Shown: positions 4,658 to 27,860, numbered from the stretch's first letter. The stretch: 38,953 nt of DNA from a virus (IMGVR_UViG_3300013902_000028:1-38953); one strand, 5' to 3'. Made by a program: numbers and translations. The notes: generated by a model not told the origin, from the letters alone.

Positions 4658-4840
4658 TCGCCATGCGGTATCCTCGGGAACCGCCAGCCATACCGTGCGC
4701 TCGCTCCCGTCCTCGAACGGGCTGACGATGCGCGCTCCTCCGAGGTCCTCCGCCTGCTCGACGAAGCTCTCCATCCTGTCCCTGGTGCAGTTCACAGCCG
4801 CCAGCACCACAGGCGGATCGCACATCGCCACAACCTTCAC
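4658..4840 (-). CDS. Hypothetical protein, about 60 aa, ending at CGA (standard code would extend to TAG at 4607)
   Basis: Protein-like up to AVPEDTAW, then CGA and a tail with two more CGA. GTG start is uncertain. Confidence 0.5.
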
Positions 4841-4970
4841 GATGTATCTGTCGCCTCCATGGTCCTATCCACGTTCTCATCTCCTTCCGTGTATCGCTCG
4901 GTCGCGGGTCGGTCGGCTTGCGCCGGCCGGCCATTCGCGCCTGCGCGCGGGGGGAACCGCGCGCTCCGCC

Positions 4971-5141
4971 TTACCGCCTGTATCTCTGCTCGGCGGTTTC
5001 GAGATAGCAGCCCTCGGATGCCATCTCGCGCCTTACATCGTCCTCGATGTCCTCGTGCGAACGCCTGTCGAATCCCGTCTGGCGGTTGTAGATGCCGTTG
5101 ACGACATCCTGTATCTCGCACCATGTGACGCAGCCTGCCAT
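4971..5141 (-). CDS. Hypothetical protein, 56 aa (MAGCVTWCEIQDVVNGIYNRQ...)
   Basis: Below the ORF-track cutoff; GAGGAGG SD 6 nt before the ATG; TAA stop; followed by a GC hairpin. Confidence 0.7.
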   Translation of the reverse strand: MAGCVTWCEIQDVVNGIYNRQTGFDRRSHEDIEDDVRREMASEGCYLETAEQRYRR

Positions 5142-5152
5142 GTCTTCCCTCC

Positions 5153-5452
5153 TCGCAGGATGTCCAGCATCTCCGGCCTTGTCCAGACGTCTATGGCGGC
5201 CTGCTTCAGCGCGGCCGTCATGCTCATCCTCTCATTGCATGAGCGGTACATATTGGCCGCCGTATCCACCCTCTTCTCCTCGGGCGGATGGTTGATGGTC
5301 CATGAGTTCTGGTCGAGATACTGGGATGTCCACACCCATATCTCGCCCTTCTCGTCACGGCTGGACCATACCTCCTGATGGAATCCTCTCGGCGTCCGCA
5401 TCAGCTCTCCGACCGCCTGCTTCACTCCATGCACCTTGATATCCCTGCTCAT
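5153..5452 (-). CDS. Hypothetical protein, 99 aa, ending at CGA (standard code would run to 5033 through the next gene)
   Basis: GGAGGATTGAGATG start; the first in-frame CGA overlaps the SD of the next gene. Confidence 0.7.
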
Positions 5453-5453
5453 C

Positions 5454-5834
5454 TCAATCCTCCTCCTCATCCTCGTACTCGGTGTACAGCCATCCGCATC
5501 CTCCGCTCGCCATCCTGTAGATATGGCACCTGTCAACCGCTATCAGCCCGACATCCATCCAGATGTCTCTGTCGTCCGGATGTCTGATGTCCACGACGGT
5601 CAGCCCGATGTTCAGGCCGTCGGGGTTCTGCTCGCACAGTATCTGGCACAGGCGGGCCATGCCGTAGCACGAGTCCCTATCCGTGTCGCGGTACTCGCGG
5701 CGTCTCAGCTCCTTCAGCGCATCATCCAGCGCATCCCTGTCGAACCAGTGGACATAGATGGCCGAAACCAGTCCCCTGCCCTCATCCACATCGCTCTTCG
5801 CTACTATCCATGCTCTGTTTCCCATTCTGCTCAT
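5454..5834 (-). CDS. Phage/MGE hypothetical protein (MGNRA...IYVHW...YGMARLCQ type), 126 aa
   Basis: Motif pattern recalled from unannotated phage proteins (not searched); coupled junctions. Confidence 0.75.
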   Translation of the reverse strand: MSRMGNRAWIVAKSDVDEGRGLVSAIYVHWFDRDALDDALKELRRREYRDTDRDSCYGMARLCQILCEQNPDGLNIGLTVVDIRHPDDRDIWMDVGLIAVDRCHIYRMASGGCGWLYTEYEDEEED

Positions 5835-5983
5835 CTCCTGCTGTTCTCGAATCTGTTTCTTGAAGAGGTTTGCACGGGCACCACGCTATCCGATGCCCGA
5901 CAGTCCCGACAGTACTGCGACGACCACCAGGCACCGCAGTACATACACCTATAACGTGTACGTGTATTTGAATCCTCCTTCAT
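5831..5983 (-). CDS. Small Zn-finger-like protein (CMYC...CRDC), 50 aa
   Basis: Two CxxC pairs; ATGA overlaps at both ends. Confidence 0.55.
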   Translation of the reverse strand: MKEDSNTRTRYRCMYCGAWWSSQYCRDCRASDSVVPVQTSSRNRFENSRR

Positions 5984-6207: not shown

Positions 6208-6208
6208 C

Positions 6209-6610: not shown

Positions 6611-6611
6611 C

Positions 6612-6791: not shown

Positions 6792-6841
6792 TGTCGCTAT
6801 CTCCTTGGGTTGTGTTGCGGGGTTTCCACCCCGCGGGGTAT

Positions 6842-7809: not shown

Positions 7810-7811
7810 CT

Positions 7812-8420: not shown

Positions 8421-8445
8421 TACCTCCTATTGATGTGCAAAGGGT

Positions 8446-8661
8446 TTAGTACTCGGCTCCTAGCAGTTTGCACGCGGTTCTGATTGCGCGCGCTCTTACG
8501 TCCTTAGGGACATAATAGAACATGAGATTGTGGATAAGGAACCCGTCCTCAGCCCACATTTCATGGCCTATCTTATCGGGTCCGATGAGCTCAACAGTGT
8601 TGTGAAGGTCGGGATGGGTAACGAATCTCCATCCGCGGATAGTCCACAGAGTTTCACTCAT
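8446..8661 (-). CDS. Hypothetical protein, 71 aa
   Basis: 8-nt ATGAGTGA overlap with the upstream gene. Confidence 0.7.
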   Translation of the reverse strand: MSETLWTIRGWRFVTHPDLHNTVELIGPDKIGHEMWAEDGFLIHNLMFYYVPKDVRARAIRTACKLLGAEY

Positions 8662-9785: not shown

Positions 9786-9806
9786 TATATATAGTCCAGA
9801 CCCTAT
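9786..9806 (+). promoter_or_regulatory. TATA box of a probable leaderless transcript (TATATAGTCC..ACCCTA)
   Basis: About 28 nt before ATG 9822; the same extended motif recurs at 11560-11580. Confidence 0.6.
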
Positions 9807-9821
9807 CGGCATCCGAGCGAT

Positions 9822-10073
9822 ATGGCGAATCAAGGTCGGCGCGTGGTATGGTGCGCGGGATGCGGGATGTTCATCCCCAGTCCGTCGCCCTATTCCGGCA
9901 TCTGCGCCAGATGCGGCTCCCCCATAAAGGAGCTGAAGTGCATCAGGTGCGGGCACGTCTGGAAGCCGAGGGATCCGAAGCATCTTCCGAGGACATGTCC
10001 GAAGTGCTGCTCGCCCTATGCCATGTACACGCGCGTGAGGAACGGAACGATGAGGAAGGAGGAGAAGGAATGA
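9822..10073 (+). CDS. Multi-CxxC Zn-finger protein, 83 aa
   Basis: Four CxxC pairs including CIRCGHVWKPR...CPKCCSPY. Confidence 0.85.
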   Translation: MANQGRRVVWCAGCGMFIPSPSPYSGICARCGSPIKELKCIRCGHVWKPRDPKHLPRTCPKCCSPYAMYTRVRNGTMRKEEKE

Positions 10074-10285
10074 GCGATTTCAGAGTGGTCGTCGATCAGG
10101 TCGGCGGAGCGAGGGTGGTCGAAGAGGCGTTCGACACCCGCCGCGAGGCCGATGCGTTCGCCGATTCGATGATGGCCGACGGAGGCGTCCTGGACGGCTC
10201 CGGCCTCGGCGCCGTCACCGTCGGCGTGATGGAGCAGTGCAACGGCACATGGACCGTAGCGAGCAGGAGGCTCGTCAGATGCCGA
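10070..10285 (+). CDS. Hypothetical protein, 71 aa, ending at CGA (standard code: 10438)
   Basis: ATGA-coupled start; the first in-frame CGA gives a 7-nt overlap with the next ATG (10279). Confidence 0.7.
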
Positions 10286-10665
10286 AGGCGAAGGAGCCCG
10301 AATGGGTGTTCTGCGTCGTCAAGGACTCGGGGCCGAGAAGCTCCGCGTCCCGCCTGTGCATCCAGAAGGGCCTGCTCGAAGCCTTCGCCGATCTCTACGG
10401 CGGCAGGCTGGAGGAGGGCGGGAGCGTCCGCCTTCTGACGGCCCGCATGCCCGCGGGGGACGCGAAGGACGCCAGGAGGACGGTGCTGGACTTCGCCGAC
10501 ATCTACTCGGTCTCCGGGATGGCGGGGGCGGAGCGCATGCGCGGCCGCCTGGTCGAGCTCGCGCGGTCCCCGGACGCGCAGGGCATGGGGGCGGATGCGC
10601 TGAGGTCGGTGCTGGACAGGCTGTCGTCGGAATACGATGTGTTCAGGAGGGGCGCCGATGAGCGA
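10279..10665 (+). CDS. Hypothetical protein, 128 aa, ending at CGA (standard code: 11514)
   Basis: AGGAGG SD; the first in-frame CGA forms an ATGAGCGA overlap with the next start. Confidence 0.7.
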
Positions 10666-11038
10666 CATCCTCGCTCTGCTCGAAGACATCAGGAGCATGA
10701 TGGAGTCCGGGGAGAGCGCGAGCGTCTCCATGGCCTTCCGCGTGGCCGATGCCATCGCGTCGCTGAAGGCGTCCGCCGAGGCCCCGCCGCAGGCTCCTGC
10801 CCAATCCGAGGCTCCGCCGCAGTCACCGCCTCCGTTCTCGCAGCGCGGGTACTCGTGGGGGCCCGCGATGAGGGCGTGCGGGACCGAGCCCGCCGATGTC
10901 CTGAACGCCGATGCGGACGGCGCGGCGGGCGACGCTTCGAGGCGCTCGTTCGAGCCCGCTCCGCAGCAGGAATCCGAGGAGCCCGGCTCGAAGGGCCTGC
11001 TCGGCCGCATAGCCGATCTCGCAGGGGGGCGCGAGCGA
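10658..11038 (+). CDS. Hypothetical protein, 126 aa, ending at CGA (standard code: 11581)
   Basis: AGGAGG SD; the first in-frame CGA forms a CGATG overlap with the next start. Confidence 0.7.
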
Positions 11039-11514
11039 TGGCGGCTCCGAGGAGGAAGGCGAAGCCGAAGGCGGAGGAGAGGACGCAGGAGCAGGAGCCC
11101 GTCGTATGGGATCCGTCGATGGAGGAGCCGTCCGCTCCCGTCGCGGAGAAGGCTCCCGAGCCTGAGCCCGAGAAGACGGAGCCCGAGACGGCCGAGCCCG
11201 TGCCGATGGCGGAGGCTCCCGAGCCTGAGACGGCCGAGCCTGCGCCCGAGAAGTCCATGCGCGACAGGCTCGTCGAGGCCGTCGGCGCACCCTCGCCCGA
11301 CTGCGTCCCGACGCTCATCCAGTTCGAGCAGAGGAGCGGCCGCCCGTGCACGGTGCTCGTCGAGGCCGACGAGGCGGCGGTTCGCAGGGCATGGGCCGTC
11401 TGGTCGGCGGAGAACGGCACAGGGCAGGAGACGTTCGTCATGGCTCTGCTCGACGCCATGGATGCATGGCCTGCGCGCATCATGCGCCCGTGCACCCTCG
11501 TCCGTCTGGGCTGA
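11038..11514 (+). CDS. Hypothetical protein, 158 aa, with Pro/Glu-rich repeats
   Basis: AGGGGGG SD; APEPE-type repeats followed by a globular C-terminus. Confidence 0.75.
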   Translation: MAAPRRKAKPKAEERTQEQEPVVWDPSMEEPSAPVAEKAPEPEPEKTEPETAEPVPMAEAPEPETAEPAPEKSMRDRLVEAVGAPSPDCVPTLIQFEQRSGRPCTVLVEADEAAVRRAWAVWSAENGTGQETFVMALLDAMDAWPARIMRPCTLVRLG

Positions 11515-11559
11515 AACATCTTCGCGCCCGCGAGGGCGCATCCTTCTTCATCTCCCTTC

Positions 11560-11580
11560 TTATATAGTCCGGGCACCCTA
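11560..11580 (+). promoter_or_regulatory. TATA box of a probable leaderless transcript for the giant gene
   Basis: TTATATAGTCC about 24 nt before ATG 11590; no SD. Confidence 0.6.
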
Positions 11581-11589
11581 GGGGCGGTC

Positions 11590-14500
11590 ATGACAGATGA
11601 CGGTTCGCCCTACGACGATTTCCTCCGCGAGGGATCGATGGAGAAGGCCCTCGGCCTGTTCGAGAGGAAGAACAAGAACGGGGAGCAGCCCGGTGCGGGC
11701 ACAGGTGCAGGCACAGGTGCAGACGCCGCTCCGGAGAGCGGCGCGGGCTTCGGCGGGAAGGTCAAGAATGCGCTGGGCAAGATCGGAGAGAAAGTCGGGG
11801 GCGCACCCGGGCAGGAGAATACTGCCGAGACTCATGAAGAGTCGAATGATCTCGCATCCGACGGCATGACGTTCGATTCCGACAGACCCGTGGACGAGCA
11901 TCCCGAGGCTTCCGACGAGACCCGTATGAGGGAGCTCCGCCGGATGGGCGAGGCGAACAAGGAGGCGGTGAAGAATACAGGCGCAGGCGACGTCTATGCC
12001 GACAGAACCGATCCCGAGAATGCGGACGAGGTCGCCGCGAAGCAGCTCAAGCAGAACGAGCAGGTCGCCGCAGATGCGGAGAAGCAGAGACGGCTGTCGA
12101 ATGAGAAGACATGGGCTGAAGAGCAGGACGAGGCGGAAAAACAGAATGCGGAGAATCCGGATGGCACTCCCGAGACGAAGGATGCAGGGAATCCGAACGT
12201 GCAGCCCGACTCGCTCATCGCCGATCCCAAGCAGAGACAGGAACAGCCTCCGCAGGATTCGATGTATCAGGATCCGAAGGCGCAGGACATCTACAGGCGC
12301 CATGCGGAGAAGTTCCTCAAGGCCGCAGGGGAGACCGCCGTCGAGAACTGGGGCGAGGGCGTGTCCAGAGGATGGGACATGGCGCAGAACATCGTCAAGA
12401 TGACCCTGACGCACCCGTCCGCCATGTCGTCCTCGTCCCGTCTCATCGGGACCGCCCTGACAGGACTGCAGACCGCATCCGACTTCGCGGACAAGGCGGC
12501 CGCCAGATACGGCATGGCCGCGGATGCCGACCCGGAGCTGGTGAAGGACACGCTCAGATACAGGCTCTACAGGAGGGATGCGAAGGCGGGCGAGAACGTC
12601 GTCGGCAACACCTTCAGGACCATCTCCGACTCTTTGGCCAGGAACGGCGGCGACATGGCGGACATGTCCCCGTCCCAGCTCTCCGCGCACATGCGCGACA
12701 TGCAGGGCGAGAAGGACAGGCTGGTCGCCGCACTGCAGGAGCCCGACCTGAAGCCGTCGGACAGGAGGCTCCTGATGGGGCAGGCCCAGCATCTCCAGTC
12801 GTACATGACGGGCATCGCCAAGCAGGCCAAGTCGCTGCAGGCCCAGCAGAACGAGGCGAACAGGTACGCGAGGGCGCAGGATCTCGACAGGAGGAAGGTC
12901 GCATACGACACGCTCCCCTCGGGCGACCCGAACCCGTGGAGCCTGGTCCTCCATGAGGCGTCGCCGAAGTTCAACCTCGAGATCGATCCTCAGACCGGGG
13001 CGCCGAAGACGAGGGAGGGGATGAATGCGGCCGCCAAGACCATCGAAGGCATGATAGGGCGCATCGAGGCCGATGCGGCGATGGATCCGAACACGAAGGC
13101 CGCATACATCGCGCATCTGCACGGGCTCCTGAAGCAGGCCTATTCGACGAAGGAGCGGTGGGACGAGACCAGCGCCCGCACCAAGGCGTCCGACTTCGGC
13201 TCCGTCATGCAGGACCTCGCCGCCAGATTCCCTGCGCTGGCCAACGACAACGGGAAGAGGCTGAGGGACCTGTACGAGAAGGGCGAATGGCCCTCCGACG
13301 GCAGCGTGACCCTCAGAGCGCTCACCGCGAGATTCGCAGAGATGGCCGCCTCGGGGGACGAGGAGACGAGGAACGTCGGGAACCTGTTCCTGTCGTCCCT
13401 CAACTCGTATGTCAATTCGAGCAAGCTGGGCAACCGCATCGCATCCTATTCCCTGAACGACCGGAACAGAGCCATCAACGGGCATGTCGCGGAGCTGAAG
13501 GCCGCGCAGGCGCATCTGGACGAGCTCGCGGAGGAGGCGGCCGACGGAACGCTCACGCAGGAGCAGGCCGCAGAGAAGGCAAAGTACGAGGCCCGCATCG
13601 CCATGGAGCGCAGCCTCATCGAGGGCCTTCAGAAGGGCGTATCGGATATGAACATCGACGAAGGTGTGCTCAGCGATGCGTACAAGGACCTGCACAAGGT
13701 GCTCTTCAGGAGCACACGCGACGATGTCACCGGCGCAAGGTTCGATGTCAACGACCCGAAGGTGCAGGAGGCCCTCGCCAGATTCGACTCCGTCGTGAGA
13801 CGCTACGAATACAAGTACTTCAACAGGCTCCTCGACAGAGGCGCCGCGGTGAGGGGCGTGCTGGACGGGCAGGACGGCGGCGGGGCGCCCCTCCCTCCGC
13901 CCGGCGGGCAGGGCGGAAGGCGGGTTAATCCCAGACGTCAGAGGCAGAGGAAGAAGACTCCTCCGGCAGACGGCACTCCCGATGTCGCCGATATGAGCGG
14001 GTACGACGAGAGCAGACCGCTGGATGTGGGCAATGCGACCGTGTACGACAGGAACGGGAATCCCACTCCGGCCAAGGTCGTCGTGGATGCGAACGGCAAA
14101 CCTCTGCTCGGCGAGGACGGCAGACTCCGCTTCGTGGCGCTCCGCGGAAAGGAGGGGGGGAAGAGATGGGTCGAGATCGACGGCAAGGGCGCATACAAGG
14201 GAGAGCTGTACGAGCGCAAGGCTCCTGAAGGCGAGGGAGCAGGAGGCGATGCGGATGTCCCTCCCGGGGGCGAGGATGAGGCTTCCCATGATGATGCCGA
14301 AGATGAGGCGAAGCCGCCCGAAGGCGAGGGTGCAGGACTGGGCGGAGGCGACAGACAGGGCGACGCGGATGAAATCCCTCTTGATGATGCCGAAGGTGAG
14401 ACAGAGCAACCTGTAGATGAGCAGGGTGCCTCTCTTGACGATACCGATGATGAAACAACAAATGAGGGAACTGGCTATCAGAAGAGATGGGATGCACGCG

Positions 14501-17031
14501 GAAGGCTTCCCGCGAAGAGGAAGATATTGGAGAGAAGATATGGCATCCTCGGACTTGATGGGAATAGATTGACCGATGCCGATGACGATCTTATCCTGAG
14601 CAACGGATTCAATGAGAAGGACATGTCCGTTCCGAAACAGCAGGGTGCGGCCAATACTCGCTATTCCAATCTTGCCAGCTTCTATAAGGCCCATGAAAAG
14701 GATATGTCTCCTGAATTCAAGAGAGGTCTTCTTCTGCGTATGCAGAATATAAGATCCATCATAGGGAAGAGTCCGGAAGAAAGGAAGAAGACCCTGATGG
14801 GCAAATTGTTGGGAGAGGACGGGAAGGTCAATGAGGATTTCTTCGCCGATCCCGATTTTGCGCGTCAGAGTCTGGACAGTCTGAGGTTCATCACAGTCAA
14901 CAAGAAGGGCAAACTGGCCCTGAACATGAATGTGATTGAAAAAGCAGGTTTCGATATAGATACGCGGCAGGCTCTGGTCGCACGCATCAATCGGTTCCTG
15001 AATGCGAAGCAGAAGATTGGGGTTGGAAGGACAGGCGATGCAGATAGAGATGCGGACGATATGGACGGGATAGCGCCTCCTGAAACGGATATGAACACGT
15101 CTCCCGAGACGCCTGCATTCGACCCCTCGAAGCTGGATTCGCGCGGAAGCCTGAATCTCGGCGACAGTGCTGCTATCAAGGGCTATTTCAGGAGCATAGG
15201 TTTGAATCCAGATGATATCGATATGAATGTCATCGGAAAAGTCACTGCGGACATGAATCTCAACGATGCTATGAATACGGCCCGTGATGCATTGTATGAG
15301 TATGTGAAAGGCGAAGGAGTCGATACGGACGCCCTGAGCGATACGCAGAAGAAGAATCTGGACGATATCGGCAGAGCACTCGGCAACAATGCATTCCATG
15401 AGCTCAAGAGGTCCGGAGAAAGCGGAGACGGGGAGCAGGGCAGAGGCAGGGACGCCGATGATGATCAGAAAAAAGGCGATGAGCAGAAGAGTGTCCCCAT
15501 CGTCTGGCCTGACACAGGAAATAAGGCTGCGAAGCTGGCTGCGCTCTATGCAGCCACTGAAGCGTACCGCAATGACCCTGGAACCGAGACCGATCTTGTT
15601 GCGATGTATCGCGCATTCGTGGCTGATCCCACAATGAGCATCTATCGCAAAAAGAAGGATCAAAAAGTCAAGGATTTCATAGATCAGGCGGAGGCACAGG
15701 CGAAAGCCAAGGGCGTATCGCTCGAAGAAGTCGAGAAGACGAAGAACGACATGAAAGACGACTCGAATGGGAAGCCTCCTATGGATAAGGATGTCGAGAA
15801 TGCCTATGCCGTTCTACGCGACAGCATCATGGGATGGAAAGGCGGGCGCGGGGACCGTGAGAAAGGGAAGGTAGAGACGTATGCCGGCCTGGAGGAATTC
15901 ATGAAGAACGCCGCCACCAGTCTTCAGACCCTGGCTCGGGTGCAGAAGAAGGGAAAAAAGGATACCGAGTATGCGAATGCAGTGGATTCCATCGCGAATA
16001 TGTTCCTGGATCCCTACAACGGATTCAGAAACAATTATCTGAGCTTCGAAAAACAATATAGGGATGGGCAGAAAGCAGGTTTGTCCGATGAAGACGAGGG
16101 CCAGAAGAATCTGTTGAGAAAGATGGCCATTATCAGGAACTCATACAATACGCTCAAAGCGGTTCTGGCAAACGACCCCAACGGATTCGGAAACAAATTG
16201 GGCGAATTCGATGCTGTCATGCATGCTGTCGGCAAGAGGGAAGAATATGGCGAAGCGGAGAATAAGCGCGAGAATGCGGAGAGGGAAGCGAACCGTGAGA
16301 ATGCCCATAAGAACGTCAAGCCTATCGATCCGAAAGAGGAGGTGAAGACTCTCGGCAAGCTCAAGGGTCTCGACAGCAAATGGAATGGGGCTGCGAGGCT
16401 GGTAAGCTGGCTCGACGCCGCGGACAAGAACGATACAGATGCCAGGAACTATGCGAAATCGTTGAGATCCATGTTCTATGTGACGACTAAAGGGGGAGGA
16501 TACAGACTCAACAGAACTCTGAACAGGCTCAATGCTTTCAGAGGCGAGAAAGGCGATATCAACAAGGGAAAGGTGGATGACCTCATGGCCAAGTACGGCC
16601 TCGAACCCGTCTTCGGCACGAAGCCTGCGAAGGAGGAATCGGAACCCGAGCCTGCTCCCGAAACAGGAAAGGATCTGTGGAATCAGGACAGAATGATCGG
16701 CGTGATGGGCGAGGTAGCTGGGGCAAATGATCCCGGTAAGAGGTGGGATGCCTTGGAGAAGATACTCGTGCATCTCGACCCTGAAGATGACGATGCGGAC
16801 CTGAGCTGGCTGAAAGACGTGGATCGCAATCTGTTGAACGACAGGATCATGCCTATCCTGAGAGGGTACTTCTACACGACGGATGATGACGGGCAACTCG
16901 TGCCGAACGACGAGCTGCGCGACAAGGTGGATGAGGACAAGAGGTATATGGTGGACAGAGTCATGGAGGCATACGGCCAGAAGCCTGTATTCGAGTCGGA
17001 AGAGCAGGATGGCGAGGAGGAAAAGAGATGA
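11590..17031 (+). CDS. Giant 1813-aa charged, largely helical protein of unknown function (possibly virion-internal/ejected)
   Basis: Long ORF with consistent codon bias; no catalytic motif recognised; function is inference. Confidence 0.9.
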   Translation: MTDDGSPYDDFLREGSMEKALGLFERKNKNGEQPGAGTGAGTGADAAPESGAGFGGKVKNALGKIGEKVGGAPGQENTAETHEESNDLASDGMTFDSDRPVDEHPEASDETRMRELRRMGEANKEAVKNTGAGDVYADRTDPENADEVAAKQLKQNEQVAADAEKQRRLSNEKTWAEEQDEAEKQNAENPDGTPETKDAGNPNVQPDSLIADPKQRQEQPPQDSMYQDPKAQDIYRRHAEKFLKAAGETAVENWGEGVSRGWDMAQNIVKMTLTHPSAMSSSSRLIGTALTGLQTASDFADKAAARYGMAADADPELVKDTLRYRLYRRDAKAGENVVGNTFRTISDSLARNGGDMADMSPSQLSAHMRDMQGEKDRLVAALQEPDLKPSDRRLLMGQAQHLQSYMTGIAKQAKSLQAQQNEANRYARAQDLDRRKVAYDTLPSGDPNPWSLVLHEASPKFNLEIDPQTGAPKTREGMNAAAKTIEGMIGRIEADAAMDPNTKAAYIAHLHGLLKQAYSTKERWDETSARTKASDFGSVMQDLAARFPALANDNGKRLRDLYEKGEWPSDGSVTLRALTARFAEMAASGDEETRNVGNLFLSSLNSYVNSSKLGNRIASYSLNDRNRAINGHVAELKAAQAHLDELAEEAADGTLTQEQAAEKAKYEARIAMERSLIEGLQKGVSDMNIDEGVLSDAYKDLHKVLFRSTRDDVTGARFDVNDPKVQEALARFDSVVRRYEYKYFNRLLDRGAAVRGVLDGQDGGGAPLPPPGGQGGRRVNPRRQRQRKKTPPADGTPDVADMSGYDESRPLDVGNATVYDRNGNPTPAKVVVDANGKPLLGEDGRLRFVALRGKEGGKRWVEIDGKGAYKGELYERKAPEGEGAGGDADVPPGGEDEASHDDAEDEAKPPEGEGAGLGGGDRQGDADEIPLDDAEGETEQPVDEQGASLDDTDDETTNEGTGYQKRWDARGRLPAKRKILERRYGILGLDGNRLTDADDDLILSNGFNEKDMSVPKQQGAANTRYSNLASFYKAHEKDMSPEFKRGLLLRMQNIRSIIGKSPEERKKTLMGKLLGEDGKVNEDFFADPDFARQSLDSLRFITVNKKGKLALNMNVIEKAGFDIDTRQALVARINRFLNAKQKIGVGRTGDADRDADDMDGIAPPETDMNTSPETPAFDPSKLDSRGSLNLGDSAAIKGYFRSIGLNPDDIDMNVIGKVTADMNLNDAMNTARDALYEYVKGEGVDTDALSDTQKKNLDDIGRALGNNAFHELKRSGESGDGEQGRGRDADDDQKKGDEQKSVPIVWPDTGNKAAKLAALYAATEAYRNDPGTETDLVAMYRAFVADPTMSIYRKKKDQKVKDFIDQAEAQAKAKGVSLEEVEKTKNDMKDDSNGKPPMDKDVENAYAVLRDSIMGWKGGRGDREKGKVETYAGLEEFMKNAATSLQTLARVQKKGKKDTEYANAVDSIANMFLDPYNGFRNNYLSFEKQYRDGQKAGLSDEDEGQKNLLRKMAIIRNSYNTLKAVLANDPNGFGNKLGEFDAVMHAVGKREEYGEAENKRENAEREANRENAHKNVKPIDPKEEVKTLGKLKGLDSKWNGAARLVSWLDAADKNDTDARNYAKSLRSMFYVTTKGGGYRLNRTLNRLNAFRGEKGDINKGKVDDLMAKYGLEPVFGTKPAKEESEPEPAPETGKDLWNQDRMIGVMGEVAGANDPGKRWDALEKILVHLDPEDDDADLSWLKDVDRNLLNDRIMPILRGYFYTTDDDGQLVPNDELRDKVDEDKRYMVDRVMEAYGQKPVFESEEQDGEEEKR

Positions 17032-17576
17032 CGAAGCTGAAGATAGTCTATATGGACCCGAGGAAGCTCACGCCCTATGAGAACAACCCGCGTGAGAACG
17101 ACAACACCGTGCCGTATCTGATGAACTCCATCTCGGAGTTCGGCTTCCTCATCCCCGTGGTGGTGGATTCCGACGGAATCATCATCGCGGGGCATACCCG
17201 CATCAAGGCGGCGCTGGAGCTCGGGCTGAAGGAGGTTCCGACCATCTGCGCATCGGACCTGACGAAGAAGCAGGCGGATGCGTTCAGATTGATAGATAAT
17301 AAAATAAATGAACAGAGCTGGTGGGATCAGGACAAGCTCAGAGAAGAGATGGACAAGCTCGATGTGGAATGGGAGAACTTCGGCTTCGAGCCCCTGCCCG
17401 ACATGGAGGACATCCCCGTATGGGACGGAGACGGAGGAGAAGAGGTTTCCGAGGCTCCTTCCGAAGCCTCCTGCGACGAGTGCAGGCTCCTGGTGATAGT
17501 CCCCGAAGGCATCGATGCGTCCGAGGTGGAGAACACCGTCACGAGCCTGGGCTGCAAGGTCAAGGTGCTGGACCGA
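17028..17576 (+). CDS. ParB/Srx N-terminal domain protein, 182 aa, ending at CGA (standard code: 17747)
   Basis: LTPYENNPR...SISEFGFLIPVVVDSDGIIIAGHTR...ADAFRLIDNK is the ParB-N signature; protein-like sequence stops at KVKVLD-CGA. Confidence 0.88.
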
Positions 17577-20293: not shown

Positions 20294-20312
20294 TGAATAC
20301 ATTGTAGAAATG

Positions 20313-20320
20313 TATATATA
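20313..20320 (+). promoter_or_regulatory. TATA box upstream of the recombination operon
   Basis: TATATATA followed by a GAGGTGA SD and ATG 20364. Confidence 0.55.
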
Positions 20321-20363
20321 CACAGTGTGCATACAAGGATTTGCAAGAAGCGAGGTGAGAAAG

Positions 20364-21263
20364 ATGCCTGAAGAAGCGATTGCGAAGAAGAAAGCGAAGA
20401 AAATCGAAGAAGAAGCACAGACTGAAGAGAATATGGAGAATATCGAAGAGGCCATCGAGGAATGCGTCGAGGAGACGCCCGCCGAGAGCGGCCCGTATCC
20501 CGTCGGAGTGCTCAGGAAGCTCAACCAGATAAGGGGGATGACCCTTACCATGGACTGGACCCCCGACAAGGTCATGAAGATCGGCTCCGACAGGAGCAAA
20601 TGGTACCCGTACCTGTCCGTGGACAGGATGAAGTCCCTCCTGAACCCTGCCTTCGCCAAGGCCGGACTGGAGGTCGTTCCCTGCTATGAGGATATCGCGT
20701 TCCGCGGAGCCATCGGGAACATGAGCCAGCATGTCACCCTGATGCTGATCATCGATGTCGTGGACATCGACACGGGAGCATATATCAGGTACCGCGTCCC
20801 CGGAGAGGCCGGGGATTCGGGCGACAAGGCCCTGTCCAAGGCGGGAACCTATGCTCTGAAGGGCTGGCTGTCCGGAACGTTCATGCTCGGAGAGGGGTTC
20901 GACCCCAATATGACCGAGAGCGACGAGTCCTCGGACGGCTTCCCTGCAAGGCCTACGCTCACAGAGGCCGTCGAGATGAAGTCCAAGGTGCTGGACGGGG
21001 GCGTCAAGCCCGCTGTGAAGGCTCCGAAGGCTCCAGAGGCCCCCAAGGCGGCCGCTCCTGCGCCGAAAGCGAAGGCGGATGGGAAGAAGCCGACGCTCAT
21101 CCAGGAAGCGACCATGAAGAAGATCTGCGACAGCTGGGCGGAGGCGGCCCGCGAGGGCAAGGTCGGCGCCGAGAGGTACAACGCCATGTCCGAGGCGAGG
21201 GCGTCCGTATCCACGCAGTCCGATGCAGTGGACTTCATCGCCGACTTCGAGAAGGTGGCGTGA
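20364..21263 (+). CDS. ERF-family single-strand annealing protein, 299 aa
   Basis: GEAGDSGDKALSKAGTYALK motif; adjacent to a YqaJ exonuclease. Confidence 0.85.
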   Translation: MPEEAIAKKKAKKIEEEAQTEENMENIEEAIEECVEETPAESGPYPVGVLRKLNQIRGMTLTMDWTPDKVMKIGSDRSKWYPYLSVDRMKSLLNPAFAKAGLEVVPCYEDIAFRGAIGNMSQHVTLMLIIDVVDIDTGAYIRYRVPGEAGDSGDKALSKAGTYALKGWLSGTFMLGEGFDPNMTESDESSDGFPARPTLTEAVEMKSKVLDGGVKPAVKAPKAPEAPKAAAPAPKAKADGKKPTLIQEATMKKICDSWAEAAREGKVGAERYNAMSEARASVSTQSDAVDFIADFEKVA

Positions 21264-22336
21264 TGGCCCGCAGGTACAGTGCGCCCAAGTGCGCATACAC
21301 CGTCGAGAACGGAGTCATCCGCACCGACGGATCCGTGCACAACAAGGTCACTGGAACCGCCATGGCCGCGGTTCTGGGACTGTCTCCGTGGTCCACGCCG
21401 TTCCAGGCGGCCTGCTCCATGCTGGGGCTGGGAAGAGAGGACCTGGATGGGAAGCCCGCCATCGAGACGGGAAAGGCCCTCGAACCTGTGATAATCGACT
21501 ACCTGGGCAGAACGTATCCCGAGCAGGGCCTGTTCCTGCCTGCGGAGAAGGTCTTCGAGAAGCGCGAGGGCGACCACGACTCGTGGGAGTCCGACTTCGA
21601 GGACGATGTCTTCGCAGGACACGTGGACGGCATCGTGATGCGCAAGGCGGAGGACGGCTCCTCCGACGAGTACATCCTCGAGATCAAGACGTCCGGGAAC
21701 GTCGGAGCATGGACGGGCAAGGAGCATGCGGGAGTGCCGGAGTACTACTACTGGCAGGTCGCACTGTACAACGAGTTCCTGACGCAGAAGGACAAGGCCT
21801 TCGTCGGACTCGGACTGGTCGATAGGAACGCATACGCCAACCCGCAGTGCTGGGTGCCCAGCACGCAGACGTCGGCGCTGTTCGAGATGCCCATCGACAG
21901 GGAGCAGGTGGCGGAAGGGATGGAGCGCGTGAGGGCATGGTACGCCGAATACGTGCTCGGCAACGTCACTCCTCCCTACGACCCGTCCAACGACGGCGAC
22001 AGGGAGCTCTACGAGCATCTGGCGGGACTGGTCGAATCCATCGATGAGACCCGCGCCCGTCTGGAGGAGCTGGCAGACATCGACAGGAAGCTGGCCGTGG
22101 CCGAGCTGGAGCACGCGGACCTGACGGCCGCGAAGGAATCCCTGCAGGCCCAGCTCAAGGACTGGATGGGATACCACAAGGTGTCCTCTCTCGCAGGAGA
22201 GGGATGCACCGCTTCGCTCTCCGTATCCGAGAGGAAGACTCTGGACAAGGGTCTTCTCAAGGAAGCGGGAATCGATGTGGACAAATACATGAAGGTCACA
22301 TCCGTGAGCACATTCAGGCTCAAGAGGAGAGACTGA
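21263..22336 (+). CDS. YqaJ/lambda-exonuclease family recombinase nuclease, 357 aa
   Basis: AAVLGLSPWSTP, GKALEP, GHVDG, LEIKT and YYWQVALY motifs; TGATG coupling. Confidence 0.92.
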   Translation: MARRYSAPKCAYTVENGVIRTDGSVHNKVTGTAMAAVLGLSPWSTPFQAACSMLGLGREDLDGKPAIETGKALEPVIIDYLGRTYPEQGLFLPAEKVFEKREGDHDSWESDFEDDVFAGHVDGIVMRKAEDGSSDEYILEIKTSGNVGAWTGKEHAGVPEYYYWQVALYNEFLTQKDKAFVGLGLVDRNAYANPQCWVPSTQTSALFEMPIDREQVAEGMERVRAWYAEYVLGNVTPPYDPSNDGDRELYEHLAGLVESIDETRARLEELADIDRKLAVAELEHADLTAAKESLQAQLKDWMGYHKVSSLAGEGCTASLSVSERKTLDKGLLKEAGIDVDKYMKVTSVSTFRLKRRD

Positions 22337-22377
22337 AAACCCTTTACCGATGAAAAAGAACACAAGGAGTGAATGAA

Positions 22378-22881
22378 ATGGCATTCGAGAACAAGACATG
22401 GGCGCTCAGCGGAATCAACGTATCCGTCGCGGGGGACTACATCCCGCCCGAGGAGGGATACCAGTACCTCAAGATCACCTCCGCATCCTACGACGAGAAC
22501 AACGCGAGATACAAGATCGGATTCACGTCCCTCTCCAACAACGCGGACTTCTCCCAGATGTACTTCTTCAGCGCGAAGGACGACGATTCCTTCCCGCCGA
22601 AGCTCACCAACGTGAAGCAGATGGGGGTCGTGGCATCCCTCGGAAAGGCCCTCAGCGGAACCAATATCGGCATCCCCAATCCCGAGAGCATAGTCGGAGG
22701 AGTCGTCCTCGCGGACGTCAAGCTGGAGACCTACAACGACAAGACCAGAGCCAAGATCTGGAAGTACGAGCCCGTCCCCAGAGACATCGTGGAGAGCTTC
22801 GCCGACATCGAGCAGTTCTACGAGCCTACCGATGAGGACGTCTCGGGCGCCGAGGAGCCTTCGGAGGAGGCCTCCGAGTGA
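22378..22881 (+). CDS. Probable single-stranded DNA-binding protein, 167 aa
   Basis: Beta-rich, acidic C-tail, position after ERF and exonuclease. Function is inference. Confidence 0.55.
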   Translation: MAFENKTWALSGINVSVAGDYIPPEEGYQYLKITSASYDENNARYKIGFTSLSNNADFSQMYFFSAKDDDSFPPKLTNVKQMGVVASLGKALSGTNIGIPNPESIVGGVVLADVKLETYNDKTRAKIWKYEPVPRDIVESFADIEQFYEPTDEDVSGAEEPSEEASE

Positions 22882-22918
22882 AACCGAGGGGCTTCGGCCC
22901 CTCCAACGGTGTGATAGG

Positions 22919-23200
22919 ATGACCAATGAGTATCTTCTGACCAACTGTCTGCACCTCGCCACGAACGGAACTCCGTATCTGTCCATCCCCAAGCTGTGGG
23001 ACATGGATGAGGGAGACCTGGTCGATGTGATCCTGATAGTCCGCGACAGCGACGAGGTGCTGCAGATCGGCAGGAAGACGGTCGCCAACCGCGGCGGCTC
23101 CCAGTGCATATACGTCCCGAAGAGCCTGTATGACACGTACGATCTGAAAGGGAAGATGCTGAACATCTCGGTACGCAAGGTGCAGCATGAGGCAGCCTGA
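22919..23200 (+). CDS. AbrB/SpoVT-like (swapped hairpin) regulator, 93 aa
   Basis: Two repeats of a GxxYLSIPK / GSQCIYVPK-type hairpin. Confidence 0.55.
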   Translation: MTNEYLLTNCLHLATNGTPYLSIPKLWDMDEGDLVDVILIVRDSDEVLQIGRKTVANRGGSQCIYVPKSLYDTYDLKGKMLNISVRKVQHEAA

Positions 23201-23552
23201 GAGCATCATCAAGTCCGATATCAAGAAGGCTCTCGCCGAGAGGGGCGCATACTTCGCACCCGTGGCGCAGGGAAGCTTCGGAAAGCCGGGCGACCCCGAC
23301 ATGGTCGTCTGCTACAGGGGTCTGTTCATCGGCATGGAGGTCAAGACCGCCGCCGGGAGCATGAGGCCCATCCAGAAGCGCCGCATGAAGGAGATAAGGG
23401 CCGCAGGAGGCGTCTACGCCCTGCCCCGCTCCGTCGAGGATGCGATGGCCCTGCTGGACGAGCTGGACCCGATACTGGACGAGATGGAGCGCATGGCGGA
23501 AGAGCATGGATTGAGCATAGGAGGAATGGGACATGTGGAAGAAGAGTCGTGA
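23187..23552 (+). CDS. VRR-NUC domain nuclease, 121 aa
   Basis: ESIIKSDI...GDPDMVVCYRGLFIGMEVKT...Q...I.AAGG PD-(D/E)xK pattern. Confidence 0.9.
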   Translation: MRQPESIIKSDIKKALAERGAYFAPVAQGSFGKPGDPDMVVCYRGLFIGMEVKTAAGSMRPIQKRRMKEIRAAGGVYALPRSVEDAMALLDELDPILDEMERMAEEHGLSIGGMGHVEEES

Positions 23553-23733
23553 GAACCCGAAGGACATCACCATCGGCGTCCATCTGGACAGAGCGGACCC
23601 TGCTGTCAAGACCTATTCGCTGGGTTTCGAGATAGGGCGCAAGCAGGTGGAGGTCATGTTCACGGAGCATGCTTTCAAAGAGCTCGTCGAGAAGATGGGC
23701 GAAGCTCTGAACGAGGCCTCGCGCATATATCGA
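23533..23733 (+). CDS. Hypothetical protein, 66 aa, ending at CGA (standard code: TAA 23763)
   Basis: GGAGG SD; CGA ends it just before the next promoter instead of running through its TATA box. Confidence 0.65.
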
Positions 23734-23756
23734 GGGGCTTTCCAAACCATTTATCC

Positions 23757-23764
23757 TTTATAAA
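23757..23764 (+). promoter_or_regulatory. TATA box (TTTATAAA) of the neck/tail operon, leaderless
   Basis: 22 nt before ATG 23787. Confidence 0.65.
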
Positions 23765-23786
23765 TCAGATATACATTCTGCAAAGC

Positions 23787-24521
23787 ATGATCGATTCAAG
23801 CGGTACGGATGTCTATTGCACGCCGGATGACGTGGCGATGGCGATGGACCTTCCCAGTCCGGACGACCCCTTCAAAACGATGGCATTCGACGATATGAGC
23901 CATCCGTCCTTCGAGCAGGTGGAGCGCATGATACGCTCCAACAGCGAGATGATAGACAGGCGTCTGAGGCGTTCCTGGCGCGAGAACCGCGTCAAGGACA
24001 GGGTGGTATCCATCGACGTCTACGAGCATGACGAGAACACGTGGCGCACGGAATACTGGCTCCGCGGAGGCAACTTCGTCCAGCTCGAACGCGACCTGCG
24101 CCCCCTGGACCCTGCGAAGGGGGACAAGGTGGAGGTGCGCTCCTTCTCCGGCCAGTGGCGCGACGTCAGCGCATTCGAGGGCAGCGATGCGGACCCTTCG
24201 GAGAACCAATGCAGGTTCTGGGTGGACCCTGAGCGCGGGAGGCTCTTCTACCGCGCCAATATCTTCCAGCCCCGCTACAACACGCTCAGGCTGACCTACA
24301 GATGGGGAAGCGAGGAGCCTGCGCCCGAGGCCATCAGAAGGCTGTGCGTCCTTCTCACGATGATACAGATACTCCAGACCCAGCCGTTCTTCATCAAGGT
24401 CGGACAGGGCGGGGACCTCGGCATGGTGAGGCAGGACATGATAAAGACGTGGACGGAGGAATCCAACTACATCTGGGGCGCATACCAGAGGCCCTCCGCC
24501 GTGTTCTCCATGTACGGGTGA
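23787..24521 (+). CDS. Probable head-tail adaptor protein, 244 aa
   Basis: N-terminal YCTPDDV, C-terminal LTYRWG...PEAIRRLC; position ahead of tail genes. Confidence 0.65.
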   Translation: MIDSSGTDVYCTPDDVAMAMDLPSPDDPFKTMAFDDMSHPSFEQVERMIRSNSEMIDRRLRRSWRENRVKDRVVSIDVYEHDENTWRTEYWLRGGNFVQLERDLRPLDPAKGDKVEVRSFSGQWRDVSAFEGSDADPSENQCRFWVDPERGRLFYRANIFQPRYNTLRLTYRWGSEEPAPEAIRRLCVLLTMIQILQTQPFFIKVGQGGDLGMVRQDMIKTWTEESNYIWGAYQRPSAVFSMYG

Positions 24522-24525
24522 GCGC

Positions 24526-25050
24526 ATGATGGACCACGTCATGGACACGGAGGCGCGGCCGGCGATATACGTCGGCGACGACGCGAAGCTCCTGTGCGAC
24601 ATCCTCGCGGAGGACTGGCCCGACACGCCCGGGGAGCCGAGGCCGCAGTTCGTCTACGAGCGCGAGAAGCTCATGATGGATTCCAGGTACGGCAGCGTGT
24701 TCGTGTACCTCATCTCGTCCCAGAGGATGGTGTCCGATACCGATTTCCGCACGGCCGACAGGATGCCCAGGCTGGCGATCAAGCTCTCGTGCAGGTCGAG
24801 GGAGCTGATGTTCAGATGGGCCAGGATCATCGAGTCCATCCTCCAGTCCCGTCGCAGGGCGATGAGGGCGGTCAGCCCCTACACGTACCTGGAGGTGACG
24901 AACGAGCGCCCCGACAACTCGGCGGACGGCTGGTACACATACACCTACGACATCAAGCTCACAGGATACCACGTTCCCATCCTCGGTAGCGGTGTTTTTA
25001 AACCCTCCAGAGGATATGACGGGTATGACGAGATACACGGAGGCCCTTGA
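24526..25050 (+). CDS. Probable tail terminator/completion protein, 174 aa
   Basis: Size and position directly before the tail tube gene. Confidence 0.5.
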   Translation: MMDHVMDTEARPAIYVGDDAKLLCDILAEDWPDTPGEPRPQFVYEREKLMMDSRYGSVFVYLISSQRMVSDTDFRTADRMPRLAIKLSCRSRELMFRWARIIESILQSRRRAMRAVSPYTYLEVTNERPDNSADGWYTYTYDIKLTGYHVPILGSGVFKPSRGYDGYDEIHGGP

Positions 25051-26124
25051 ATGACGGGGGTCCGCCAATCATTCATGGTTGCGAAGGAGACCTCCTTCGC
25101 ATCCGGGGAGCCCGACGACGACGGCTGGTTCCACCTTCCGCCCAACTTCTTCGCGCAGGCGACGCCGACCGTATCGACCACGGAGCTGTACGGCGCAGGG
25201 TCGAAATTCTACGAGACCGTGGATTACGGCCAGTTCTCCGGCTCCTTCGAGATGTCGTTCGCAATGGACTATGAGAATCTGGCACTGTATCAGATGATAT
25301 TCGATACCGTGACCACGGCATCCGCAGGAGCGGGGAAGTGGAAGCACACGTTCTCCCTCAGGAACAATGCGCTGGTGCCGTCCTTCGTCATCAAGGGGGT
25401 GACGCTCAACGGCATCACCGTCAACGGAGGACAGGACGAGAGGTTCACCCTCGTGGGATGCGTGGCCAAATCCATCAGATTCTCCCGCTCCTCGGGTGCG
25501 GCGAGGACGACCGTCACCATATCGGGATTCTATTCCGACGAGAAGACGGAGCTGGGCGACTACGGCACGTTCTACGAGGACTACGACGGCCACCTCGTGG
25601 AGTTCTCCTGTTTGTTCAAGGGAGAGGCGGAGAGCGCCAACTACATGGCGAACGTCGAATCCATCACCATCGGTCTGGATATCGGAACCAACCCCAACTA
25701 CACCACATGCAGAGGCACCTCCGTCGGATACTACGGAGGGAAGGCGGACATCCAGCTGGGGATGACCGCATACGCCAACGACTTCCTGCGCTACAGGGCG
25801 CTGGTCATGGGCGGAGGGTCGAAGACCACCGAGATATCCTCGAACGTCTACAGATTCATGTGCAAGGGCAAGAGGCCCATGCCGCTGATGACCGTGGCAT
25901 CGTTCACCGAATGCCGCGACGAGGGCGAGACGTTCGAGAGCGCGATCGGCAAGTCCGACCGCAGCGTCGCCTTTATAGTCGAGGATGTCATCATGAACTC
26001 GTTCACAAGGCAGAAGGGAGACGGGTCCAGGCTCATCGACCAGATGAGCTCGTCGAAATGCAGGAAGCTGACCATCGAGATAGTCAACGGACAGGAGGAT
26101 CTGGGTACCGGACGCACCGTGTGA
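25051..26124 (+). CDS. Probable major tail tube protein, 357 aa
   Basis: N-terminal VAKETSFA; beta-rich; followed by chaperone and tape measure genes. Confidence 0.75.
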   Translation: MTGVRQSFMVAKETSFASGEPDDDGWFHLPPNFFAQATPTVSTTELYGAGSKFYETVDYGQFSGSFEMSFAMDYENLALYQMIFDTVTTASAGAGKWKHTFSLRNNALVPSFVIKGVTLNGITVNGGQDERFTLVGCVAKSIRFSRSSGAARTTVTISGFYSDEKTELGDYGTFYEDYDGHLVEFSCLFKGEAESANYMANVESITIGLDIGTNPNYTTCRGTSVGYYGGKADIQLGMTAYANDFLRYRALVMGGGSKTTEISSNVYRFMCKGKRPMPLMTVASFTECRDEGETFESAIGKSDRSVAFIVEDVIMNSFTRQKGDGSRLIDQMSSSKCRKLTIEIVNGQEDLGTGRTV

Positions 26125-26138
26125 TGAGAGGTAACGGC

Positions 26139-26540
26139 ATGAGCGTGGATGGATCGATAAGGATCGATATGGCCGAGTACGGAATGAACGGGATCGTCAC
26201 GGTCCGCGAACCGAGGCTGACGAGGCGCAGGATGGCTGAGAACGCCATCGGACGCATCTCGGGCATCGGAGTCAACAAGGAGATAGATCTCTCCAAGACC
26301 AGCGCGGGCGACGTGCAGACCATCGTGACCCTCATGTTCGTGGACTCCGCCCCGTTCCCCCTCGATCTGGAGGACCTGTCGGGATTCTATGCGTACTGCG
26401 ACAGGATGGATGATGCGTGCAGAGGCTCCGCAGAGAGGTTCTGGAAGGACCTGTCCGCGGCCGCGGAACACATCATGGAGGGCGAGAACGACCCTTTGGA
26501 AGTCTTTGCACCGGCTTCTCAGACAGGGAGCTCGGCCTGA
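26139..26540 (+). CDS. Tail assembly chaperone (G-like), 133 aa
   Basis: Between tube and tape measure genes; contains an in-frame slippery heptamer. Confidence 0.75.
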   Translation: MSVDGSIRIDMAEYGMNGIVTVREPRLTRRRMAENAIGRISGIGVNKEIDLSKTSAGDVQTIVTLMFVDSAPFPLDLEDLSGFYAYCDRMDDACRGSAERFWKDLSAAAEHIMEGENDPLEVFAPASQTGSSA

Positions 26541-26764
26541 CCCTGTACGAGGATGCGATCAAGAAGGGCGAGCTGGAGGGCGAGATGGCCCTCCTCTTCG
26601 CCTATGGTCTCCACCTCCGTCAGGGCGGGAGCATCGACAGCTTCATGGAGCTGAACTACTCCGACATCCAGATCCTGATATCCACCGAGATGGGCCTGCG
26701 CAGGTACAGCGCGGGACTCGAAGCCGACGCCGTCCTATCGAGGCTGTTCGCCAGGGATGATTGA
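26492..26764 (+). CDS. -1 frame extension of the chaperone (T-like), reached via C CCT TTG
   Basis: The protein-like -1 frame (PFGSLC...LTLYEDAIKK...RLFARDD) begins at the heptamer; no SD-ATG before the conserved-looking part. Confidence 0.7.
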   Translation, partial: PFGSLCTGFSDRELGLTLYEDAIKKGELEGEMALLFAYGLHLRQGGSIDSFMELNYSDIQILISTEMGLRRYSAGLEADAVLSRLFARDD

Positions 26765-26765
26765 A

Positions 26766-27860
26766 ATGGCTGAAGAAGGAATCAAGATCAGACTGGGATT
26801 CGAGCTGTCCCCCGAAGACCTGGAGAAGCTGAGGAAGGCGCTGGAGCAGGTCATCAGCGAGCCTTTCGATGTCATTCCGGGCGGGAAGCCCTATACGCCA
26901 GGAAAGTATGCCGACAACAAGCAGACCGAGAGAGAGGCCAACGAGGCCCGCGAGAGCCTGAGTGACCAGTTCAAGGACTACATCAAGGATGAGAACAACC
27001 AGAAGAAGCTCATAACCAAGGGCGTGAACCAGGCCGAGAAGGCCGTTTCCGCCTCTCTTACCAAGGGATTCGGCATCGTCGAGGACATCTACGGCAGGCT
27101 GAAGTCGGCATCGCCTCTCCTTCAGACCATCGAGCAGCTGTTCAACCTCGCCATGACCCTGTTCTTCATGCCTCTGGGCAACAAGCTGGCCGAAGTCCTC
27201 ATCCCTGCCACGGTGGACCTTCTGGACAAGGTCGTGGACATGTGGGATGCGTTCGAGGGGAAGACGCTGGGCGAGATGTTCGCATACGCTATCGACTACG
27301 GCGTCAAACTCTTCGGAGAATACTTCACGAACATCGGCGAGCTCCTCGAAGACCAGGGCGGCCTCGTGGGGGGCATCGGCACGATGCTCCAGACTATAGG
27401 CGCATTCATCGAGGGGCCCGCGATAGGCGTGCTGAACACCATCCTCACCGCCACCACCGTCATCCTGAGCCATCTGAAGGAGTTCATATCGCTGTGGATA
27501 GCGATGAAGGCCGCGGAGATGGCGATAAACGCGATGGGCATATTCAAGGACCTGGGGGCGGGCACGATGGTCGCCGTCGCGGCCATTGCCGCATTGGCCG
27601 CGGGCGCCACATCGTACGGCACTCTGACAGGGCTGGGAATGGCCGACGGGGGATATGTGCCCGCCAAGGCCGGAGGCTCGCTCAGAGTGCTCGGAGAAGG
27701 CGGGAAAGGCGAATACGTCATCCCCGAGGACAGGATGGGAAGCGTCGGAGGGAGCACGACGATCAATGTGTACGGATACACCGATTCGGAGCTGAAGACC
27801 ATCATCAGGGATACGGTCAACGAGCAGGTGTCCCAGTCGCGCATCAGGGGGTCGTTCCGA
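26766..27860 (+). CDS. Short tape-measure-like protein, 364 aa, ending at CGA (standard code: 27881)
   Basis: Helical Ala/Gly/Leu/Ile-rich body; C-terminal MADGGYVP...GEGG.GEYVIP motif; CGATG overlap with the next gene. Confidence 0.75.

Follow-up and report, generated by a model that had tools for sequence, protein, structure and literature searches.

The DNA analysed here is a 38,953-bp contig with a G+C content of about 59% (IMGVR_UViG_3300013902_000028:1-38953, the full record for this genome and hereafter called the window) from a tailed archaeal virus, in whose genes the arginine codon CGA is very likely read as a termination signal in translation, a reading to which we assign a probability of roughly 0.85. 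A sequence-only reading of the window had proposed this on the basis of eight genes whose protein-like sequence ends at or near the first in-frame CGA. The proposal is supported by related viruses, in which the orthologous genes end on TGA, by the lack of conserved sequence past the CGA and by the occurrence of the same pattern in a candidate host. Full-text searches of the literature returned no report of CGA as a stop codon in methanogens or in any virus.

The coding signal ends at in-frame CGA codons

All eight in-frame CGA codons named by the sequence-only reading were found where it had placed them and in the contexts it had described, and inspection of these contexts confirmed that their flanks share no common motif. 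In a gene model of the window that treats CGA as a stop, 28 of the 38 genes end on TGA, eight on CGA, two on TAA and none on TAG. Under the standard code the eight CGA-ended genes would continue to the next canonical stop for 50 codons (CGA at 10283), 282 (10663), 180 (11036), 6 (27858), 56 (17574), 39 (5155, minus strand), 9 (23731) and 16 (4660, minus strand), the tails of 50, 282, 180, 56 and 39 codons being the five long read-throughs that had been anticipated.

Codons were then scored with CGA set as neutral. On this scale, in-frame sequence averages +0.29 and off-frame sequence −0.55 per codon; the gene bodies score between +0.17 and +0.36, and the tails after the CGA between −0.27 and −0.84. 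The coding signal stops at each CGA, and what follows resembles off-frame sequence. From 10.0 to 11.5 kb, coding moves through frames 2, 1, 2 and 1, with switches at 10283, 10663 and 11036, each adjoining the ATG and the Shine-Dalgarno sequence of the gene that follows.

No CGA was found inside coding segments of the window and of five related loci, which together comprise about 38,000 codons. Within coding stop-to-stop frames the CGAs are confined to the part upstream of the start or to positions at and beyond the end of the coding segment. The gene for a giant protein of 1813 amino acids, said to lack internal CGA, indeed holds none among its 126 arginine codons, and ten confidently assigned genes contain one CGA in 5813 codons, compared to 26 per 1000 across all frames. 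This single codon lies upstream of the start ATG at 34708, a start that is backed by ortholog alignment. CGA is frequent off-frame, as had been cautioned, with 26–30 per 1000 positions in the two remaining frames of these genes. It is in their placement that the CGAs depart from chance, with a frame switch at each and TGA at that place in orthologs. The overlap CGATG, the twin of TGATG, is found at five junctions between coupled genes.

No credible gene of the virus or of the host samples ends on TAG; this codon occurs only downstream of CGA ends (4609, 11579), which fits a pyrrolysine-using host.

Orthologs in related viruses end on TGA

A contig of 58.7 kb in IMG/VR, 99.7% identical to the window, overlaps its right part and continues rightward beyond it, contributing genes for a Terminase_3 large subunit and one tRNA-Met (CheckV completeness of the contig 71%). 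The contigs of three syntenic relatives measure 83.2, 83.3 and 83.7 kb. From the size of these relatives together with the terminase on the overlapping contig, we conclude that the window is a 39-kb part of the genome of a tailed archaeal virus with a complete size of about 83 kb. The ortholog set was assembled from contigs carrying ParB homologs and from two relatives in archaeal genome bins, amounting to four to five syntenic viruses with protein identities of 40–83%. These viral relatives are referred to as L004, L006, L009 (on contig G001:C3) and G134:C1, while L001–L003 denote near-identical, independent assemblies.

At seven of the eight sites TGA is found in orthologs from these viruses (40–75% identical), sharing the alignment column of the CGA at four sites and lying within one to nine residues of it at three. 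Homologs of the ParB protein and of the proteins designated 10070, 10279, 10658, 5452 and 26757, to which the sequence-only reading had pointed as informative, end with TGA at or next to the CGA position. Reciprocal-best pairs with collinear C-termini from four viral loci comprise 50 pairs of TGA with TGA, 13 of CGA with TGA, three of CGA with CGA and three of TAA with TGA. The exchange is also seen in reverse: in the families of 22832–23200 and 23187–23552, among others, relatives end on CGA and the window on TGA. No conserved protein sequence past any CGA was detected in the orthologs examined.

Sequencing error was considered as a source of the CGA codons and excluded. The CGA at 17574 is repeated in L001–L003 and that at 23731 in L001 and L003, independent IMG/VR assemblies that are 99.5–99.8% identical to the window, and the CGA at the end of the first gene described below is conserved in four divergent viruses.

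The eight gene ends

Three of the sites lie in a row of four short plus-strand genes, g1 to g4. The 71-residue g1 (ATG 10070, 10070..10285) ends on the CGA at 10283–85 (site 1), part of ATGCCGA at 10279–85, which gives an overlap of 7 nt with the ATG of g2, and its frame 2 coding signal stops at this codon. The end ..LVRC-CGA is common to the window, L004, L006 and G001:C3, and G134:C1 has TGA one residue away. The read-through tails that would follow measure 13, 50, 64 and 85 codons and are not conserved in length. For g2 (128 residues, 10279..10665) the CGA at 10663–65 (site 2) is part of the junction ATGAGCGA at 10658–65, whose TGA counterpart, ATGAGTGA, is located at 8654–61 on the minus strand. 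This gene ends on CGA in the window and L006 and on TGA within two residues in L004 and G001:C3. Its frame 1 signal is absent from 10663 to 11036, the interval in which 12 more CGAs occur before the canonical stop 282 codons on. The third gene, g3 (126 residues, 10658..11038), ends on CGA at 11036–38 (site 3), with a CGATG overlap (11036–40) to g4 (11038–11514). In the alignment the window has ..GGRE-CGA and L006 ..ARRE-TGA in one column, and G001:C3 and L004 have ..FKRD-TGA and ..FRRD-CGA, respectively; the tail past the CGA scores −0.44 per codon. In the relatives, g2 and g3 as well as g3 and g4 are parted by TGA and a spacer, which identifies g2, g3 and g4 as separate proteins.

The same overlap, CGATG at 27858–62, joins a tail gene of 367 residues (site 4; 26757..27860, plus strand, CGA 27858–60; weak tape-measure match to phrog_1535) to the next gene at 27860–29401, and the TGATG to which this geometry had been likened is present at 21261. 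The 367-residue protein has full-length, collinear orthologs that end on TGA in the same column in L006, G001:C3 (L009) and G134:C1 and on CGA in L004.

The protein with a ParB-N domain (site 5; 182 residues, 17028..17576, plus strand) ends in ..KVKVLD followed by the CGA at 17574–76, which overlaps the end of the convergent radical SAM gene by 17 nt; its tail runs over that gene with a score of −0.84. All of its 12 nearest homologs (54–66% identical, 188–203 residues) end at the residue preceding the CGA at 17574. In the syntenic viruses L004, L006, L009 and G134:C1, TGA stands in the same column, and CGA is found in the window alone. A public protein collection lists this ParB with 239 residues, compared to 182 up to the CGA.

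On the minus strand, a gene for 105 residues (site 6; 5153..5470) ends on CGA at 5155–5153, which runs into the GGAGGG of the next gene (4971–5141). TGA is found two residues earlier in G134:C1 and nine earlier in G001:C3, neither of which has the 39-codon tail, and the tail score is −0.28 per codon. The gene for 66 residues (site 7; 23533..23733, plus strand) ends on CGA at 23731–33, with TGA in the same column in L006, G001:C3 (L009) and G134:C1 and CGA in L004. The weakest case is the minus-strand gene for 60 residues (site 8; 4658..4840), for which the CGA at 4660–4658 is assigned from the coding score alone (body +0.26, tail −0.50 per codon); its next canonical stop is TAG.

A candidate methanogen host ends its own genes on CGA

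L009 lies on a 55.8-kb contig that was binned in the 2.3-Mb assembly G001. This assembly contains an aRF1 release factor gene, mcrA, PylS (above the family cut-off) and a purely archaeal set of G34/U34/C34 tRNAs, and on these grounds it is a pyrrolysine-using methanogen, for which the public organism name "Lachnospiraceae bacterium" appears wrong. When window positions 19001–38953 were searched as DNA against 174 genomes of the host family, long matches came from ten, of which nine are among the genus-level genomes, the tenth, G134, being without confirmed genus placement. Among these matches are the 83.7-kb contig and a more distant syntenic relative on a 90-kb contig. The host genus carries mcrA, and pyrrolysine-using gut methanogens are the candidate hosts of the virus. 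Short spacer-like matches in the family recur in many genomes at a small, constant set of window positions, for which reason we took them for conserved gene segments and not for spacers.

As the sequence-only reading had suggested might be found in the host, CGA is enriched at gene 3' ends in G001, housekeeping genes included. In 200 kb sampled from this assembly, 162 genes end on TGA (120), CGA (35) or TAA (7) and none on TAG, and the tails after the CGA are nearly all non-coding. The arginine codons within coding segments include 1754 AGG and 1092 CGC as compared to 17 CGA, and these 17 lie mostly at gene junctions. When cut at the CGA, TruD, Pelota, SstT, a ChlD-type chelatase and NreA still align with their NCBIfam profiles right up to the final positions. 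The virus thus shares the variant code of its candidate host, in whose genome the codon behaves in the same way.

Computed with a host-trained seed, the share of genes ending on CGA is 30% in host genome G096, 22% in G001, 12% in G005, 8% in G132 and 6% in both G134 and G099. It amounts to 21% in the window virus (both halves), 11% in virus G001:C3, 3% in virus G134:C1 and 0% in the virus-like element G005:C2, showing that use of the CGA stop varies among related viruses. The last of these (G005:C2:40001-90731, L119–L121) is a distant syntenic relative with protein identities of 28–51%, in which none of 28 genes ends on CGA and whose putative host has the share of 12%.

Decoding machinery and a possible mechanism of termination

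No tRNA genes were found in the 38,953-bp window. In the roughly 75 kb seen of the approximately 83-kb genome there is no virus-encoded tRNA-Arg, the sole tRNA being the tRNA-Met(CAT) on the 58.7-kb contig, and Pfam and PHROG scans, which over the same 75 kb covered the larger genes only, gave no family match for a viral release factor. With neither a tRNA-Arg nor a release factor found in the virus, CGA must be read by host machinery. The tRNA-Met(CAT) gene itself (L011:14767-14842; G002:C1:54767-54842) lies beyond the window and represents a viral tRNA or the remnant of an attachment site.

The sequence-only reading had listed three mechanisms, a release factor that reads CGA, a codon left unassigned by the lack of tRNA-Arg(UCG), and C-to-U editing. 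The second is contradicted for the host genus, where tRNA-Arg(UCG) is present in 23 of 41 genomes (L037, L069–L091; for example G001:C131:2839-2912), and the first, in competition with this tRNA, fits best. The anticodon and acceptor stems of the tRNA show compensatory changes, which suggests that the gene is kept under selection. Its positions 31 and 39 do not pair in any of these genomes (A.A, C.A or U.C), leaving an anticodon stem of 4 bp, and this mismatch may weaken the decoding of CGA.

The gene for aRF1 carries exactly one in-frame CGA, at residue 78, in 35 of the 36 genus-level genomes examined, and residue 78 is a conserved arginine that aligns with arginine in the structures 4af1 and 3agk. 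In more distant aRF1 genes of the family a single CGA stands at residue 9, 11 or 25; the gene lacks the codon in one genome and holds four in the most distant. Over the genes surveyed (L062:4073-5302, minus strand, and L145–L194) the position of the CGA is clade-specific. The in-frame CGA looks like a feedback sensor that was re-invented or moved between clades.

We propose the following scheme. Genes of the host end on TGA, CGA and occasionally TAA but not on TAG, CGA having vanished from sense positions. In the ribosomal A site, CGA would most likely be recognised by aRF1 in the way of UGA, and the retained but weakened tRNA-Arg(UCG) would compete with aRF1, making the stop leaky. The virus would use the host code, TGA and CGA being swapped at gene ends by single T/C transitions, and synthesis of aRF1 would depend on read-through of its own CGA by tRNA-Arg(UCG). 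From the comparison of genes and genomes we infer that termination is the work of aRF1 and not of editing or a rescue pathway, and termination at CGA is probably leaky.

Alternative explanations

Several observations speak against CGA as a termination signal. The absence of internal CGA could by itself reflect codon bias, and its rarity is not diagnostic because CTA (2), TTA (0), CCA (3), TCA (7) and CAA (8) are almost equally rare in the ten confident genes. The retention of a cognate tRNA suggests that CGA can be decoded as arginine at least sometimes, and the NIKS and YxCxxxF motifs of aRF1 are ordinary in the single alignment inspected. Sites 4, 7 and 8 have a canonical stop within 6–16 codons and are weak taken singly, and for the 60-residue gene at site 8 a homolog was looked for in the related loci and none was found. 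The assignment of the host rests on binned contigs and on the more distant relative in the 90-kb contig, and neither a CRISPR spacer match nor an integration site was found for the virus.

The loss of CGA from sense positions would also be expected if the codon were hungry or effectively unassigned, so that ribosomes stall on it and are cleared by a rescue pathway, for example through Pelota, with no codon-specific release. A cognate tRNA bearing the 31-39 mismatch may indeed decode the codon poorly. However, such rescue would be required at about a fifth of viral and host genes, including housekeeping genes, which would be costly and would yield products without normal peptidyl-tRNA hydrolysis. 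The fivefold occurrence of the CGATG junction, on the other hand, suggests ordinary termination and reinitiation, and a tRNA gene under selection is likewise hard to reconcile with an unassigned codon. We regard this explanation as unlikely.

Every CGA end is a single C/T difference away from a TGA end, and TGA is what the orthologs have, as would be the case if the mRNA were edited site-specifically from CGA to UGA and the standard code were kept. An editor that recognises CGA alone would, however, rewrite many sense codons, and sparing them would need an extra determinant, of which the eight contexts show no motif. Since CGA is common in the other frames and missing from the coding frame, its loss from one frame only is explained by a frame-aware reader such as the ribosome. 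Editing would moreover destroy the in-frame CGA at the conserved arginine of the aRF1 gene. Editing, too, is therefore improbable.

It is highly improbable that the standard code applies and that CGA is merely a very rare arginine codon, with the genes continuing to the next TGA, TAA or TAG through tolerated tails and long overlaps. Three of the tails are short, and the YNA codons CTA, TTA and CCA are equally rare, as this would lead one to expect. Against this, the tails are off-frame in composition and unconserved in length, and one of them would cross two other genes and the 12 further CGAs in its 282 codons. Nor would a rare arginine codon be confined to the ends of some 20% of genes or be matched by TGA in orthologs at seven of eight sites. 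Finally, a programmed frameshift at a CGA pause, fusing g1 to g4 and other neighbours, could draw on the frame changes of −1, +1 and −1 at 10283, 10663 and 11036 and on the Shine-Dalgarno-like AGGAGG upstream, but it is hardly credible given that every downstream gene has its own ATG, that the same genes are divided by TGA and a spacer in relatives, that the ParB, 66-residue and 105-residue genes have no downstream frame to enter and that no slippery motif is common to the eight contexts.

Other features of the window

Family and profile scans of the window identified, besides the ParB-N protein and the radical SAM enzyme, an SNF2 helicase, an Erf-like annealing protein, a YqaJ/RecE exonuclease, a D5-type primase-helicase and tail proteins. 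A blastn search with window positions 9800–17100 against 50,697 phage records gave no match. The region from 10000 to 11600 has a G+C content of 68% and is open in several frames on both strands, and standard lists of open reading frames accordingly contain long, spurious, overlapping frames there, such as 10096–11541 on the minus strand.

The four small genes are followed by the gene for the 1813-residue protein (11590–17031, plus strand), which measures 1809 residues in L006 and about 2355 in L004, has no Pfam or PHROG match and is conserved in parts only. The sequence-only reading had taken it for the tape measure protein; the weak tape-measure match belongs instead to the gene at 26757–27860. 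The radical SAM gene (17560–18870, minus strand) lies between the ParB and SNF2 helicase genes and is absent from the syntenic L004, L006 and L009, which makes it an insertion specific to the window virus.

Discussion

To our knowledge, changes of a sense codon to a stop are otherwise established in organelles only. In the mitochondria of vertebrates AGA and AGG act as stops, in those of Scenedesmus UCA and in those of Thraustochytrium UUA (NCBI tables 2, 22 and 23). As in these organelles, the sense codon in the virus and its candidate host is gone from coding positions and replaces a standard stop at gene ends. Organelle genomes are tiny, however, whereas here a free-living archaeon of 2 Mb and a virus of about 83 kb would be concerned; CGA is the codon involved, the gene for its cognate tRNA persists, and termination seems leaky.

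Variant codes are known from phages as well. Mycoplasma phages read TGA as tryptophan, and crAss-like and Lak phages recode TAG or TGA in late genes. The window virus resembles them in that viral genes are readable only with a non-standard code linked to the host. Those phages turn a stop into a sense codon, often by means of suppressor tRNAs or release factors of their own, whereas here a sense codon would become a stop, all gene classes are affected and no such factors were found. The aRF1 gene of the host in turn recalls bacterial prfB, the RF2 gene, in which an in-frame UGA serves autoregulation via a +1 frameshift. The host gene likewise holds its own target codon in frame, as one CGA near the N-terminus, which suggests feedback. 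The +1 frameshift needed in prfB would have no counterpart in the host, where plain read-through by tRNA-Arg(UCG) would yield the full protein.

Recognition of CGA by aRF1 is plausible because the homologous yeast eRF1/eRF3 has been reported to misread CGA as a stop (PMC7379694). In both cases a factor of the aRF1/eRF1 family would terminate at CGA where the decoding tRNA is poor, with the difference that in yeast this happens at CGA repeats, by error or as a rescue, while in the virus and host it is proposed as the normal end of about 20% of genes. The Codetta survey reported no sense-codon change in archaea, using a method that is unable to infer stops. A preprint has raised a possible CGA stop for two Njordarchaeales assemblies (bioRxiv 10.64898/2026.04.02.715157), also archaea in which CGA is absent from recognisable protein domains. 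They differ from the present case in belonging to another phylum, in the reported absence of tRNA-Arg(UCG), in reading CGG as tryptophan and in having neither evidence from gene ends or orthologs nor a virus.

Taken together, this is probably the first virus known with a sense codon turned into a stop, CGA acting as a leaky fourth stop that was inherited from a lineage of methanogens in which the release factor gene senses this codon. On the practical side, roughly one gene in five is mis-annotated by standard gene callers; g2, for instance, would be extended by read-through to 411 residues compared to 128. The CGA-end share, at 6–30% in hosts and 0–21% in viruses, may help to assign viruses to hosts, and CGA ends would, if the reading is true, be a marker that links uncultured viruses to this host lineage. 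The virus in turn provides independent evidence for the CGA-stop trait of the host. CGA stops may form a barrier to genes arriving from organisms in which CGA encodes arginine, and their leakiness could allow virus and host to tune C-terminal extensions or coupled translation. The contest between retained tRNA and release factor would represent a live, ambiguous intermediate of codon reassignment, and if CGA does end translation in free-living archaea of this lineage and in their viruses, the cellular code would be more plastic than thought.

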